Shown in pieces: positions 1-5,373 of a stretch of DNA of 64,000 nucleotides. The DNA lies in the NCBI RefSeq assembly GCF_056746865.1, contig NZ_CM163382.1. One strand, written 5' to 3'. Position numbers: made by a program. The stretch's first letter is position 1. The number at the start of each line of letters is the position of its first letter.

Positions 1-3000
1 GCGCGCTGAGAAATACTGTGGCTAAGATTGGGGCGACAAGAAGTGGTAGGTATGCGATAGAGAAAGCCGTTCAGGAAGCTACAAAAGCAGTGCGCGCAGG
101 GGCATCACCAGCAGCGATCGCCGCAGCAGAGAAACGATTTTCGGCCAATAAAATTGCCATGAAAGCAATTCGTGATGCCGTTGGGGCTGAAGAATTCGTG
201 AAACTGACAAGGGCCGGGATTGTAGCTACCCTCAGTGGCATGAAAGATGTTAGCGAATGGGAATAGACGCTCTAACTAACAAAACCATAATAGCCAAGGA
301 CGGCATACTGATATTGAGCCAACTATCAAAATTCCATATCACATTACGGGCCTGTGGCTTACATTCGCTTACAGTGATGATAATTTATAACCACGCAATT
401 CTTAGGTGAGATTATCATGATTAAAAATCTTCTTTTAATATTATCCCTGTCATTATTGGCTGGATGCGTACAAAAACCGTTAGTAACGGTCAATGCTTTA
501 TCTTCCGGGCAATCTGTCGGTAAGAAGTTCTTGATCATCCCCGCAAGCCAAGAACTTTGGAACACCAAACAGATTGAATACACTCAAATAGCTACGGTAG
601 TAGCCGCCAGTTTATCAAGCCAAGGATATACACAAGTTAAAGATGAAAAATTGGCTGACCAGGTAATTCTCTTGAACTTTTTGAGAAGCGGGGCCATTTC
701 AAATACTCGTAATGTAACCATCCCAATATACGGGCAAACTGGTGTGAGCTCAGCAACAACGTACGGAAACTCGAACACCACGTTCAATAGTTATGGTGGT
801 GGCTACGGTACAGCTAATACCACTGGAACGGCAACAACAGTTTATACGCCTACTTATGGAATTACTGGCGCGTATAACACAACTGTGACGGACACGTTCT
901 ACGGCGCAGGGGTGATACTCCAGTCGTTTGATGCCAAGGCTTATCTCAATAATAGGCAGATTAATATGTTATGGAAAGTTGGTAGCTCAGTCGTCTCGCA
1001 ACAGTCTGATGGAATTGCTGATTACAAGGGGTTGGCGAGAATAGCCGCTAGCTATGCCGGGAAAAATACAGAAGGTGATATAACTTTTAATGTTGACCCT
1101 AAAGCACCAAATTAACTAATAAGCCCGGTACGCCGGGCATTTATGCCCCTATTATTCATGAATCGCTTTTTCTAGAAGGTATGCGACAAACGTTAAGTGA
1201 CATTGCCTACACATTCGGGGCGGGATTTCAAATCCGCTCCCAGTTGATGGGGGGCGTTACAGTACGCGCATATCCGCTTTATGTGAAACAGGAAGATTTT
1301 TCTGATATCACTGCCACAGCAAAACACCAATTTCGTGACCAGTACGCGCGCGAGGGGCATCAGTTGCAAAAAGTTTTGCAACTGCGTCCGACCAGTACAC
1401 ACACGATGGCGGTGGATACCATAAAACTGTTCTCTACATGAGACAGAGTGGTGGTGATGTGTTGATTATCGGCGTATATGCGCACAGGTCGCGCTATGAC
1501 GATGTTTTATGCGGGTACACCAATCACATGTATCTGATGTGATAAATCGCGTTACATGACCTCTCTGTTGTGCTGGTGGTTATCACGACGTTCTGAATCT
1601 GGCTTTTGTCTGATATTTTGCGACAAGTACGCGCGCGTAGCATCGACAGCATACACATTGGATATTCATTTTGTGACCAATGCGATAAGTAGCGGGATAA
1701 GCATTGATAAAATCAACAGGCCGATGATCCACTTTTGATTTTCACTGGCCTTATCTCTATTTTCATCAATCTTATCCATAATTCGACGCTCCAAGCCGTG
1801 CATATCACCGCGAATGGCAATTATCTCATTGCGAACATCCGAGAAGTGGTTGGCTTGATGTTCAATGTGTGGCGTTCTGCCTTTCATGCCTGATCCTCAC
1901 CCATCGTCACCACCTGCTGGTGTATAAAGGTATTGGCCCAAGCAGCTTTCCAATGGGCACTCATGTTTATACGCTGACCTTACAATCAATCACCGCTTTT
2001 AACTTTTCAGCATTGCTTCCCTGACGCTTCCACGCGCTGTAAATATCTTTATCCCACGCTTTACCAGCTTTTGTTTGATAGCCTGCTTCATTGATCCGTT
2101 CAGCTATCACACGCCCATTATCAAATCCCTGTTGGATGGTATCGGCAATGATCTTTATAACTGCCGTTTCGTTATATGGCTTTGGTGGGATGTTCGACTT
2201 TCCGGCAATAAGCGACGCAGCGGCTTTTTCCATGCGCTCCACCAGCCCAAGCATTCGTGAATCAATAGACTTTTCCGGCTGTCCCAGCTTCATGCGAATC
2301 GCATCAACAAGCCAGGAGGTTTTATCCCCTCCAGAAGCGAGAACAGACCGATTAAACTCATCCTGCAATTCAGATGGGATGCGGAACGCGACCAGATTAG
2401 ATTTGCTCATTGCAAAGACCATATCAGTGAGTAATATCCATACAGTATACCACTGTATAACACTGTTATACGCTCAAATATCAGCCAGAAAATAACGAAC
2501 CAATCACAAATCTATCGCTGTGTTGTTGGTTCAGAGCTGGGCTGTGTTGGTTCAAAATGAGTTGATGTTGGTTCAATATTTTAGAAAAAACGCAATAAAA
2601 ACAACGATCTTTACAAATTGAACCAACTGAACCAACTGAACCAACACCTTTTTGCTTATCTATATAATCTGAGAGGCAGAAATGATAAGGGACAGGAAAG
2701 CTGAAGAGCTGGAGTCAAAAGGGCTATACCGGAGAGCTGCCGCACGATGGGCAGAAGTCATGATGCTGGCAGATGGCGATAAAGAACGTGAACATGCAGC
2801 AAACAGACGCTCTGAATGTATCCGTAAGGCGGCACGCCCACCAGCAACTACAGACAAATTCGGAGATTTAAGACAGGCAGTTAAGCGGACTCATTCGGCT
2901 CTTGGTATGGATGAGGAAGCGAGAGGGTACTTCAGGCGTTATCGCGATAAAGATTGCCAGAGACAGTAATGCTCTATCTGTTTTGGCAAATTACCCCTCA

Positions 3001-5373
3001 CTTTGAAGGGATCGGAGCTATAAAAATGGTGTTATCCGGCTTCCTGCATTGCAGGTTTTCGAAAAAATCAATGGGTTAGGTCATCGTGCAAATTTGCACT
3101 CTGCCAGCCAACGCAATTTCTCGTTGGCGAAAATATCAGGTATTTACTGATTCTGCCGCCTCACAAGGATGCGAGAACCTTATAAAACCTAATATCGCAG
3201 AGCTTAATTGTGTACAGCAATTTCACGAGCAATACGCGCGCGCAGGACAACAAGCCTGAACATGGTTACACACCTCGATCGTGAGGGATGTAGGCAATGG
3301 CTTCTGACCAAAGCACCCGAAAAAACCGTGTACATAAGGGTGTACATAATCAAAAATCGCATTAGGAAGAAACCAGATACAATGCGGCATTGAAGCCAAT
3401 ACTCTACAAACAGATCCAAACTCGTAACGCCAATTCTTCCTTTTCAGCCTTCACAAATGCCGCCCACTCAAACAGAGCGGCATTTTTCCTCCCCGCAACA
3501 TTCAATTCTGTTTTGCGTGCCTGCTCCAGATTTTGCGATGTTTTTTTGCCCAGCGCAGTGAGAACGTGAGATACTTACAACTGTATATAAACACAGTTGT
3601 AGACTTACTTTCCTTGCAATCGATATCACATGGAGTGGGCAATGAACGAACATCATCAACCTTTTGAAGAGATAAAGCTGATTAATGCAAACGGAGCAGA
3701 ACAATGGTCAGCAAGACAACTTGGAAAACTACTGGGTTATTCAGAGTATCGTCACTTTATACCTGTATTAACGCGCGCCAAAGAAGCTTGTCTGAATAGT
3801 GGTCACACAATTGATGACCATTTCGAGGAGATCCTCGATATGGTCAAAATTGGCTCAAATGCCAAAAGAGCATTAAAAGACATCGTACTCTCCCGCTATG
3901 CCTGTTACCTGGTAGTACAAAACGGCGACCCTGCGAAACCGGTTATTGCGGCAGGGCAAACTTATTTTGCTATCCAGACCCGACGGCAGGAGCTGGCTGA
4001 CGATGAAGCTTTCAGGCAACTTCGTGAAGACGAAAAGCGTCTTTTTCTGAGAAATGAGTTGAAAGAACATAACAAACAATTAGTTGAGGCAGCGCAGCAA
4101 GCTGGGGTAGCGACAGCTATCGATTTCGCCATATTTCAGAATCATGGTTACCGGGGACTGTATGGTGGATTAGATCAGAAAGCTATCCATCAGCGGAAGG
4201 GGCTGAAAAAGAGTCAGAAGATCCTGGATCATATGGGTTCAACAGAACTGGCGGCTAATCTCTTTCGAGCTACCCAAACAGAAGAAAAACTCAAGCGGGA
4301 TGGCGTGAATTCAAAACAGCAAGCTAACACCACACACTTTGACGTGGGTAGCAAGGTGAGGCAAACCATTCAGGAACTTGGCGGAACCATGCCTGAGGAG
4401 TTGCCGACCTCGCAGGTCAGCATCAAGCAGTTGGAAAACAGTGTAAAAATTACAGAGAAGAAATAGCAGAAACTAAAAACTCTTTTTGTTGATTGAGATA
4501 CCCGATGCGTAAGCCAAAGTCCAGGTGCGGTGAACACAATGGCTAACATTGCACCTTTCTTTTCCACCCCTCAGTTTTAACCTACTTTTTCTTATGTATT
4601 TTCTCAGACAAGAAGTCAGAAGAATGCATCTACGCTACAGAAAACAACGATTTCACATAACTAAAAATTATCAATTTCCTCTCACCTTAAAAAATCTCAA
4701 TCGTGACAATGCGTACAAATCGCTACCCTGCCAGACAGATTTTTAGGGAGATAACCATGCTGTTACACATTTTGTATTTGGTTGGCATTACTGCCGAAGC
4801 CATGACGGGGGCGCTGGCGGCCGGACGACGGCGCATGGATACATTTGGCGTAATTATTATTGCGACCGCCACGGCAATTGGCGGAGGGTCAGTGCGCGAT
4901 ATTCTGCTGGGCCACTATCCGCTCGGCTGGGTCAAACACCCGGAATATGTGATTATTGTCGCTACCGCCGCAGTACTCACCACTATCGTTGCTCCTGTAA
5001 TGCCTTACCTGCGCAAAGTGTTTCTGGTGCTCGATGCGCTCGGACTGGTGGTCTTTTCTATCATTGGCGCACAGGTTGCGCTGGATATGGGACACGGCCC
5101 GATCATTGCCGTTGTCGCAGCTGTGACGACCGGCGTATTTGGCGGCGTTTTGCGCGATATGTTCTGTAAACGCATCCCACTGGTATTCCAGAAAGAGTTG
5201 TATGCCGGTGTCTCATTTGCCTCCGCCGTGCTGTACATCGCGCTGCAACACTATGTTTCTAACCATGATGTGGTAATTATCTCCACCCTGGTATTCGGCT
5301 TTTTTGCCCGCTTACTGGCGCTACGCCTTAAGCTGGGATTACCGGTCTTTTACTACAGCCACGAAGGTCACTA

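Follow-up and report, generated by a model that had tools for sequence, protein, structure and literature searches.

What do three closely related 22-mers, lying within weak hypothetical reading frames at the end of an integrated element, represent? The question comes from a 64-kb Escherichia coli window (i.e., the whole 64,000-nucleotide stretch analyzed here, from contig NZ_CM163382.1 of RefSeq assembly GCF_056746865.1), for which an initial annotation had described three copies of a 22-bp motif and offered binding sites or remnants of a small repeated element as explanations. Here, we trace the copies to phage small-terminase (terS) genes and lean toward reading them as mimics of phage packaging (pac) sites. 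The pattern TTTYRYGANNNRTACGCGCGCG had exactly three matches in the window, all on the plus strand, against 0.02 expected by chance, and three matches were reached in none of 100 shuffles. The three related 22-mers therefore stand as described, with a shift of one position for the first: copy 1 (TTTCGTGACCAGTACGCGCGCG) occupies 1331-1352, copy 2 (TTTTGCGACAAGTACGCGCGCG) 1616-1637, and copy 3 (TTTCACGAGCAATACGCGCGCG) 3221-3242, ~85 nt left of the integrase arm sites at the right attachment end (attR) of the element. The copies are unevenly spaced, at 285 and 1605 nt, and rich in G+C. The 10-mer TACGCGCGCG by itself, with one mismatch permitted, was not unusually frequent, so the signal resides in the whole 22-mer. 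No further copies were found in the remaining 60 kb of host DNA in the window, and for this reason a dispersed chromosomal repeat family (repetitive extragenic palindromic or bacterial interspersed mosaic elements [REP/BIME] and the like) was rejected. A partial fourth copy had also been proposed; near 1669-1689 we found only the first half of the motif, at the 3' end of a minus-strand coding sequence and outside the conserved block described below, and it was treated as a chance resemblance.

The origin of the motif became apparent from a scan of 2.9 million viral contigs, which placed the 22-mer in 69 stretches. About 25 of these were E. coli-type copies of a conserved block (1217-1646 in the window), and ~40 belonged to unrelated phages with G+C contents of 41-66%. 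In the latter, the 22-mer always lay inside one gene, where it encoded ..TVFRWL-x5-FRDQYARAREAQAD.. (FRDQYARAR). The gene in question encodes the Sf6-type small terminase (Pfam PF20901) and is present in the P22-like E. coli and Shigella phages Sf6, HK620, Sf101, and Kapi1. Nucleotides 166-187 of Sf6 gene 1 read TTTCGCGACAAGTACGCGAAGG, and across the 39 kb of the Sf6 genome the motif matrix matched only at nt 166 of this gene.

The three copies had different closest terS alleles. Copy 1 matched 19 of 22 core positions of an E. coli prophage allele (L078, ..EFRDQYAKA..), with a longest identical run of 18, and copy 2 matched 18 of 22 in Sf6 gene 1 (..DFRDKYAKA..; longest run, 14). Copy 3 was identical at 21 of 22 positions (run of 20) to the allele of a prophage of E. 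coli 2013C-4991 (L116, ..EFHEQYARAR..), judged to be P22-like by its capsid, portal, and scaffold genes, and at all 22 (longest run, 24) to a terS from IMG/VR (L067). Immediately outside the copies the likeness stopped: the 24 flanking positions matched terS at only 7-8, no better than random, which indicates a sharp footprint and not a decaying gene. A terS profile aligned over 11-13 residues at copies 1 and 3; at copy 2 the aligned stretch was 27 residues, and only there did it reach ~15 residues upstream of the motif. A resident Sf6-type terS gene or pseudogene (PF20901) was rejected on these grounds (no Pfam match, 11-27 residues aligned, flanks at 7-8/24). Genuine Sf6-family genes and the copies share identical nucleotides over the codons F-R/H/C-D/E-Q/K-Y-A-R, whereas in the window there is no gene, the similarity is confined to the 22-mer, and the surrounding open reading frames (ORFs) match no Pfam family. 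As judged by these alignments, the 22-mers reproduce, with sharp edges, the codons F-x-D/E-Q/K-Y-A-R/K, each from a different Sf6-family terS allele. By the same comparison, the seemingly degenerate positions of the consensus are allelic differences among the terS genes of helper phages, of which ~22 nt per gene were kept. The earlier suggestion of remnants of a small transposable repeat thus gives way to ~22-nt excerpts of phage terS, taken from the presumed position of pac.

Are the excerpts maintained as protein or as DNA? A plus-strand frame encodes F[RCH][DE][QK]YAR at all three copies, and we considered that they might be the coding ends of paralogous genes. This candidate was rejected because the three ORFs overlying the copies had no match in Pfam, terS similarity ended at the motif edges, the reading frame changed within an ORF, and a 1-nt indel was present. 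A motif-like stretch at 1261-1270 (AGTACGCGCA) lies in the same ORF as copy 1 in a different reading frame, and in relatives (L034) the indel, located in the loop of a palindrome beside copy 1, breaks the ORF frame. The lack of Pfam matches, the mixed frames, the indel, and the fact that the NCBI annotation pipeline PGAP mostly leaves the block unannotated bear out the initial suspicion that the overlapping ORFs are spurious and that the copies are non-coding, DNA-level elements.

The spot in terS from which the excerpts come is the one that connects them to packaging. In P22, pac is a 22-bp asymmetric sequence within the terS gene, gene 3 (Wu et al. 2002, as cited in PMC9611059 and PMC8022706). 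We located this 22-mer, GAAGATTTATCTGAAGTCGTTA, at nt 268 of gene 3, where it encodes E-D-L-S-E-V-V. P22 gp3 and Sf6 gp1 belong to different Pfam families; when the two are aligned, the P22 peptide would correspond to E-D-F-R-D-K-Y of Sf6, both following a helix-turn-helix and a conserved Trp. P22-like phages reportedly swap the DNA-binding domain of the small-terminase protein (TerS) together with an embedded pac, and the Sf6-type pac is likewise said to lie within the part of the gene that encodes the DNA-binding domain. The three 22-mers resemble P22 pac in being ~22 nt long, asymmetric, and composed of codons just after the TerS helix-turn-helix. They differ from it in belonging to the Sf6 gp1 family and not the P22 gp3 family, in being shifted ~6 nt toward the 3' side in the alignment, and, as do the other units here, in lying outside any terS gene on an element without a terminase.

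A unit of the P22 type is also present in the window. This P22-gp3-type, pac-like sequence (GAAGATTTTTCTGATATCACTGCCACAGCA, 1292-1321, plus strand) was identical to P22 pac at 16 of 22 positions and to terS of E. coli phage IME10 at 22 of 30. It scored 25.5 bits with a matrix built from real terS genes only and was the sole such match in the 64 kb; matrices made in this way yielded no matches in the window beyond terS-type units. In a diverged relative, L038, three units matched nt 266-268 of P22 gene 3 at 25, 22, and 21 of 30 positions, compared with a shuffle maximum of 18.5 on average and up to 21. Wherever a comparison exceeded its shuffle maximum, the best match always fell at terS nt ~267 (P22 type) or ~155-169 (Sf6 type).

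What kind of element carries these units? The window from 3630 onward holds dinD, yicG, and ligB, and genomes with an empty site (yicC adjoining dinD) begin matching at ~3419. The attR region (3328-3419, plus strand) includes two GTGTACATA integrase arm-type sites at 3328-3350, which recur beside the integrase at the opposite end of the element. The start of the empty-site match and the arm sites at both ends identify window positions 1-3419 as the right end of an integrated element. In a relative from E. coli 4750, 97.8% identical over window positions 1-5000, the complete element spans ~17.5 kb between yicC and dinD. It starts with an integrase, a helix-turn-helix regulator, and an AntA/B antirepressor, followed by the isrK and C4 antisense RNAs and an icd-like ORF; it continues with a TOPRIM/DUF927 primase and homologues of P22 gp14, gp7, gp20, and gp16 (head-completion/ejection); and it ends with a lipoprotein, a repeat-bearing stretch, a ribbon-helix-helix (RHH) gene, and a PerC-like gene. 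Capsid, terminase, and tail genes were absent from this gene content, so that the relative is a mobile element without its own capsid and terminase genes. Judging by its genes, the element appears to be a P22-like-phage satellite equipped with ejection proteins of its own. These genes point to P22-like phages as helpers, and as they are not accompanied by a terminase the element would have to rely on that of its helper. We found no earlier description, in the literature, of satellites of P22-like phages or of satellites with ejection proteins. The ~17.5-kb yicC-dinD element is seen in full in L075 (NZ_CP103589.1, 71000-89000), and a relative with the same core sits at tRNA-Thr in an O111 strain (L084). 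Attachment-site or tandem-integration repeats were rejected as a source of the 22-mers: integrase arm-site matches occurred only at ~3327-3350, and a third attachment-like copy near 1217 was absent.

With somewhat more confidence than doubt, our interpretation is that the 22-mers and the P22-type unit, together with related sequences, form an array that imitates the pac sites of helper terminases with several specificities. We favor this reading because we know of no cis-acting function other than pac at that spot of terS, because the element lacks a terminase, and because satellites that copy a packaging signal of their helper are well documented. Matches to P22 pac reached 16/22 for the P22-type unit of the window and 25/30 in L038; the Sf6-type copies matched natural terS alleles at 18-21/22, at the position aligned with P22 pac. 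Of the explanations first offered for the 22-mers, binding sites is accordingly the one best supported by their relationship to terS and pac, and they are putatively such. According to this model, TerS of P22-like phages recognizes a short asymmetric pac inside its own gene, at the codons just after the helix-turn-helix, and the element carries an array of ~22-30-nt excerpts of that spot from several TerS types and alleles. While a helper replicates, its TerS would bind a unit on the excised, replicated element, after which cleavage by the helper large terminase would lead to a phage capsid filled with element DNA. Having several variants would allow the element to use helpers of differing packaging specificity. 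More tentatively, and with rather less than even confidence, we propose that the element may represent an undescribed family of P22-like-phage satellites with their own ejection proteins and an evolving 'poly-pac' cassette, comprising at least three TerS families and several alleles, that would be packaged by any such helper.

The units were not confined to this locus. In L038, flanking genes were ~75% identical and intergenic similarity was weak and patchy, yet TTTCGCGACCAGTACGCGCGCG and a second Sf6-type unit were retained. A scan of species-representative genomes for the P22-type unit returned real terS genes in Tatumella and in one further Enterobacteriaceae genome, as well as non-coding tandem arrays in Enterobacter asburiae, Kosakonia pseudosacchari, and Kluyvera intermedia. 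The Kosakonia array, for instance, reads GTTTCGAGACCAGTACGCGCAC / GAAGATTTATTGGGGGTCACTACGCGAG / GAAGATTTTTCCATCATCACTACACGAG / GAAGATTTTTCTGACATCACCACGAG / TTTATGCAACAGTACGCGCACGCG. The arrays of these other genera are carried by the same integrase/AntA-B/primase backbone and immediately precede the isrK and C4 RNAs and the icd-like ORF. Units of the P22 type, the Sf6 type, and a third terS type were mixed in Enterobacter, Kosakonia, Kluyvera, L038, and the early region of the E. coli element. Beside the arrays, the third-type unit GAGTTT(C/T)(T/C)GGAGTCCA(T/G)AAAAAAG was identical at 24-25 of 30 positions to a third terS type (..YPEFSESIKKGK..) that is common in E. coli P22-like prophages, the match again falling at the homologous position. 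The third-type unit of the E. coli early region, GAGTTTTCGGAGTCCATAAAAAAG, showed 24/24 contiguous identity to an E. coli prophage terS. In L038, and with the arrays in three other genera, conservation of the units exceeded that of their surroundings; the motif is thus conserved in related genomes (L038, the three other genera, and E. coli genomes) and is not a peculiarity of one locus.

Orientation and frame provided a further indication of what is conserved. The E. coli early-region units lie on the minus strand (L075, 12790-12900), upstream of isrK/C4/icd, and in comparison with the Kosakonia array the P22- and Sf6-like units are inverted and the third unit is not. Units within one long ORF occupied different reading frames. 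The mixed frames and partial inversion together argue for constraint on double-stranded DNA, not on a peptide or a single RNA strand. An antisense RNA against terS mRNA was considered unlikely, the units standing in both orientations relative to transcription, and a CRISPR-like array was rejected because there are no repeats between units and the matches are imperfect.

The position of the early arrays suggests another role, in which helper TerS, bound beside a promoter, would switch element genes on, with a late helper protein serving as the signal. In Enterobacter, Kosakonia, and E. coli, the early arrays are directly upstream of a promoter-like stretch and the operon of isrK, C4, and the icd-like ORF, and the late block of L038 keeps a third-type unit with adjacent promoter-like sequence (read by eye). 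We give this role little credence: there is no known mechanism of such a kind, Rfam matches no RNA family to the window's own block, copy 3 sits at the attachment end and not at a promoter, and the varying orientation of the units suits a packaging site better than a fixed promoter architecture. Known RNA families were also rejected as the source of the repeats, since Rfam gave no meaningful match in window positions 1-5000, the sole one listed being far below its gathering score.

Within the window, most units belong to a conserved non-coding block of 430 bp (1217-1646, plus strand) that holds the P22-type unit, copy 1, a palindrome, a degenerate copy, and copy 2. The block recurs intact with the same end points and differing neighbors in many loci (L002, L003, L005, and many from IMG/VR), and both of its ends are recurrent mosaic breakpoints. 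Of 5426 complete E. coli genomes, 544 carried it, in every case chromosomally and mostly without PGAP annotation, and it was intact in 522. Isolated phage genomes did not contain the block; when they were compared with region 1130-3420, the matches were limited to 60 nt of roi and a weak one in a Klebsiella phage. Two degenerate sequences accompany the full units. The first (GTTACAGTACGCGCATA, 1256-1272, plus strand) aligns opposite GTCACTATGCGAGGCA of L038, the tail of the L038 unit at 4015-4044, and the second (GACCAGTACACACACGATGG, 1390-1409, plus strand) is an Sf6-type copy with CG changed to CA, a member of direct-repeat family D1 with 80% identity to the 20-nt reference copy (copy 1).

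The breakpoints bring up the possibility that the units are inert recombination scars, i.e., bits of terS caught by illegitimate or short-homology recombination with helper DNA and persisting without function; capture might have occurred, for example, at terminase-cut ends near pac or at the recombination-prone alternating CG run. The recurrent mosaic junction at 1646 is 9 nt away from copy 2, and in Kluyvera a unit marks the exact start of the homology. A Chi site (GCTGGTGG, plus strand) is located at 1572-1579, 36 nt before copy 2 and 67 nt short of the junction. At ~3021-3080, in the otherwise non-coding stretch before copy 3, a 60-nt piece ~83% identical to the roi/KilAC antirepressor genes of HK620, Shiga toxin (Stx) phages, and others is a pseudogene remnant in the same region, and one degenerate copy has undergone CG-to-CA decay. 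However, one ~25-nt spot of the gene, and no other part of it, supplied at least five fragments belonging to three terS families, they form head-to-tail arrays with unit turnover across four genera, the block has stayed intact in the 522 E. coli genomes, and uniform sharp edges would not be expected of scars. We therefore regard scars as unlikely, albeit the most credible of the alternatives to pac mimicry considered here.

Two palindromes are associated with the copies. The perfect palindrome that had been noted 8 nt after copy 1 is present at 1361-1384 (CAGTTGCAAAA-AG-TTTTGCAACTG, with 11-nt arms and a 2-nt loop). Its arms are retained in E. coli relatives, the loop being variable, including by 1 nt, and it is not conserved in L038; it is probably outside the core feature. 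Copy 2 terminates in a perfect 12-nt palindrome, TACGCGCGCGTA (1628-1639), which is an alternating CG run. In L004 (3519-3536), a unit just 3' of the PerC-like gene has one CG more than this run, which suggests slippage.

Beyond the block's right edge, at junction 1646/1647, 9 nt 3' of copy 2, a variable cargo slot (slot 1; 1647-1999, minus strand) extends to the RHH gene. Here it encodes a protein of 73 aa whose C-terminal tail is hydrophobic (ORF 1666-1887); in relatives it holds either ImmA/IrrE plus a hypothetical gene or an Abi gene. The block thus borders a slot with Abi and ImmA/IrrE-type genes in relatives, a defense-rich context in which the array might act as a terminase decoy, drawing helper TerS off the phage pac and so cutting phage yield, be it for defense or for satellite interference, whether or not the element is packaged. 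The same sequence evidence that supports mimicry supports a decoy. Yet without replication of the element so small a number of chromosomal sites would sequester little TerS, and with replication packaging follows naturally; the element's own ejection-protein genes also argue that it enters virions. A decoy as the explanation for the array is therefore distinctly improbable in our estimation.

The initial annotation had linked the motif to the RHH and PerC-like proteins encoded nearby. The RHH gene (1967-2422, minus strand) and the PerC-like gene (2682-2969, plus strand) are divergent and lie between copies 2 and 3, and the units are repeated, co-oriented, and non-coding, as operators for these regulators or replication iterons for the primase would be. 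The link fails in related elements (L093, L111, and L112), where the same units occur with neither an RHH nor a PerC gene adjacent. The spacing is irregular, and the identity of the units to terS genes would go unexplained. A much better candidate is found between the two genes themselves, at 2521-2645, where three direct TGTTGGTTCA repeats (2521-2575), an AT-rich spacer, and three tandem inverted TGAACCAAC sequences (2619-2645) form what looks like an RHH operator or a replication origin. Replication iterons in particular were rejected, given the spacing, the GC-rich motif, and the better fit of the TGTTGGTTCA repeats. Of all the readings weighed here, operators or iterons seem to us the least credible.

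Several points weigh against pac mimicry itself. The Sf6-type pac is placed at nt ~160-190 of gene 1 by a motif alignment to P22 gp3, and its coordinates did not appear in papers citing the pac work. Binding of the units by TerS and packaging of the element are likewise predictions from sequence. Taken alone, the P22-type unit of the window is not significant (21-22/30, against shuffle maxima of 22-25). Copies 1 and 2 have CGCG where the closest E. coli alleles read AAGG. The early-region arrays adjoin a promoter-like stretch upstream of the isrK/C4 RNAs, and a regulatory role for them is possible. Finally, the window contains only the right end of the element, and its presumed satellite nature is taken from the 97.8%-identical relative.

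Other features of the element were observed alongside the units. After the gp16-like gene, 417-1115 encodes a lipoprotein of 232 aa with an abundance of Thr, Gly, Tyr, and Asn. It is conserved in relatives (86% and 59% identity), has only weak DUF4136/TraT-like matches, and could serve the element as a surface or exclusion factor. Distant relatives sought by means of this lipoprotein were limited to two viral contigs, one known already and one ending at the gene, and the same search of species-representative genomes yielded none. A second variable cargo slot (2765-3312), 3' of the PerC-like gene, holds a pRiA4b ORF-3 family cassette in O111 strains. The 'ash family protein' annotated by PGAP (PF10554, Phage_ASH) coincides with the Rfam isrK and C4 RNA genes (L075, 12435-12762; L111, 6485-6800) and also overlaps the icd-like ORF in another frame, so this family may be a translation of RNA genes and not a real protein.

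Mimicry of packaging signals by satellites is already known, and the finding is not categorically new in that respect. The phage-inducible chromosomal island-like elements (PLEs) that parasitize phage ICP1 carry a 14-bp pac mimic, within an 89-bp similar segment (Boyd & Seed 2024, PMC11417361), that is conserved in all PLEs and needed for transduction (PMC11417361). As in the element described here, a satellite without a recognized terminase of its own bears a short stretch matching the pac region of its helper. A PLE, however, has one site from the intergenic pac region of one helper, whereas the element has several, each from a different terS allele or family, which are coding-sequence excerpts, stand in arrays, occur at two places on the element, and have a putative function. 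Other satellites carry cos sites of their helpers (P4 with P2, SaPIbov5, and the E. coli phage-inducible chromosomal island EcCICFT073; PMC9026076 and general knowledge). These likewise place a packaging signal of the helper on the satellite so that the helper terminase packages it; theirs is a single cos of one specificity, used by cohesive-end packagers, whereas here packaging would be by headful (pac), with several specificities side by side. What is new is the multi-allelic, multi-family array, its origin in coding sequence, and the ejection-protein-bearing element that carries it.

How TerS selects viral DNA has long been an open question, and a review (PMC9611059) describes in vitro pac binding as weak and non-specific for P22, Sf6, and SPP1-type TerS. 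If the units are mimics, evolution would already have trimmed each terS gene to the bases that matter, and the arrays would offer testable minimal pac sequences for several TerS types together. In the case of the poly-pac reading, the retained 22-mers would record, as a natural footprint, the determinants by which Sf6-family small terminases recognize DNA. For E. coli, mimicry would mean that ~10% of complete genomes harbor a satellite family with its own ejection proteins, in which the block is a conserved anchor beside a cargo slot with defense-type genes, and in which a single satellite hedges across helpers of differing packaging specificity.

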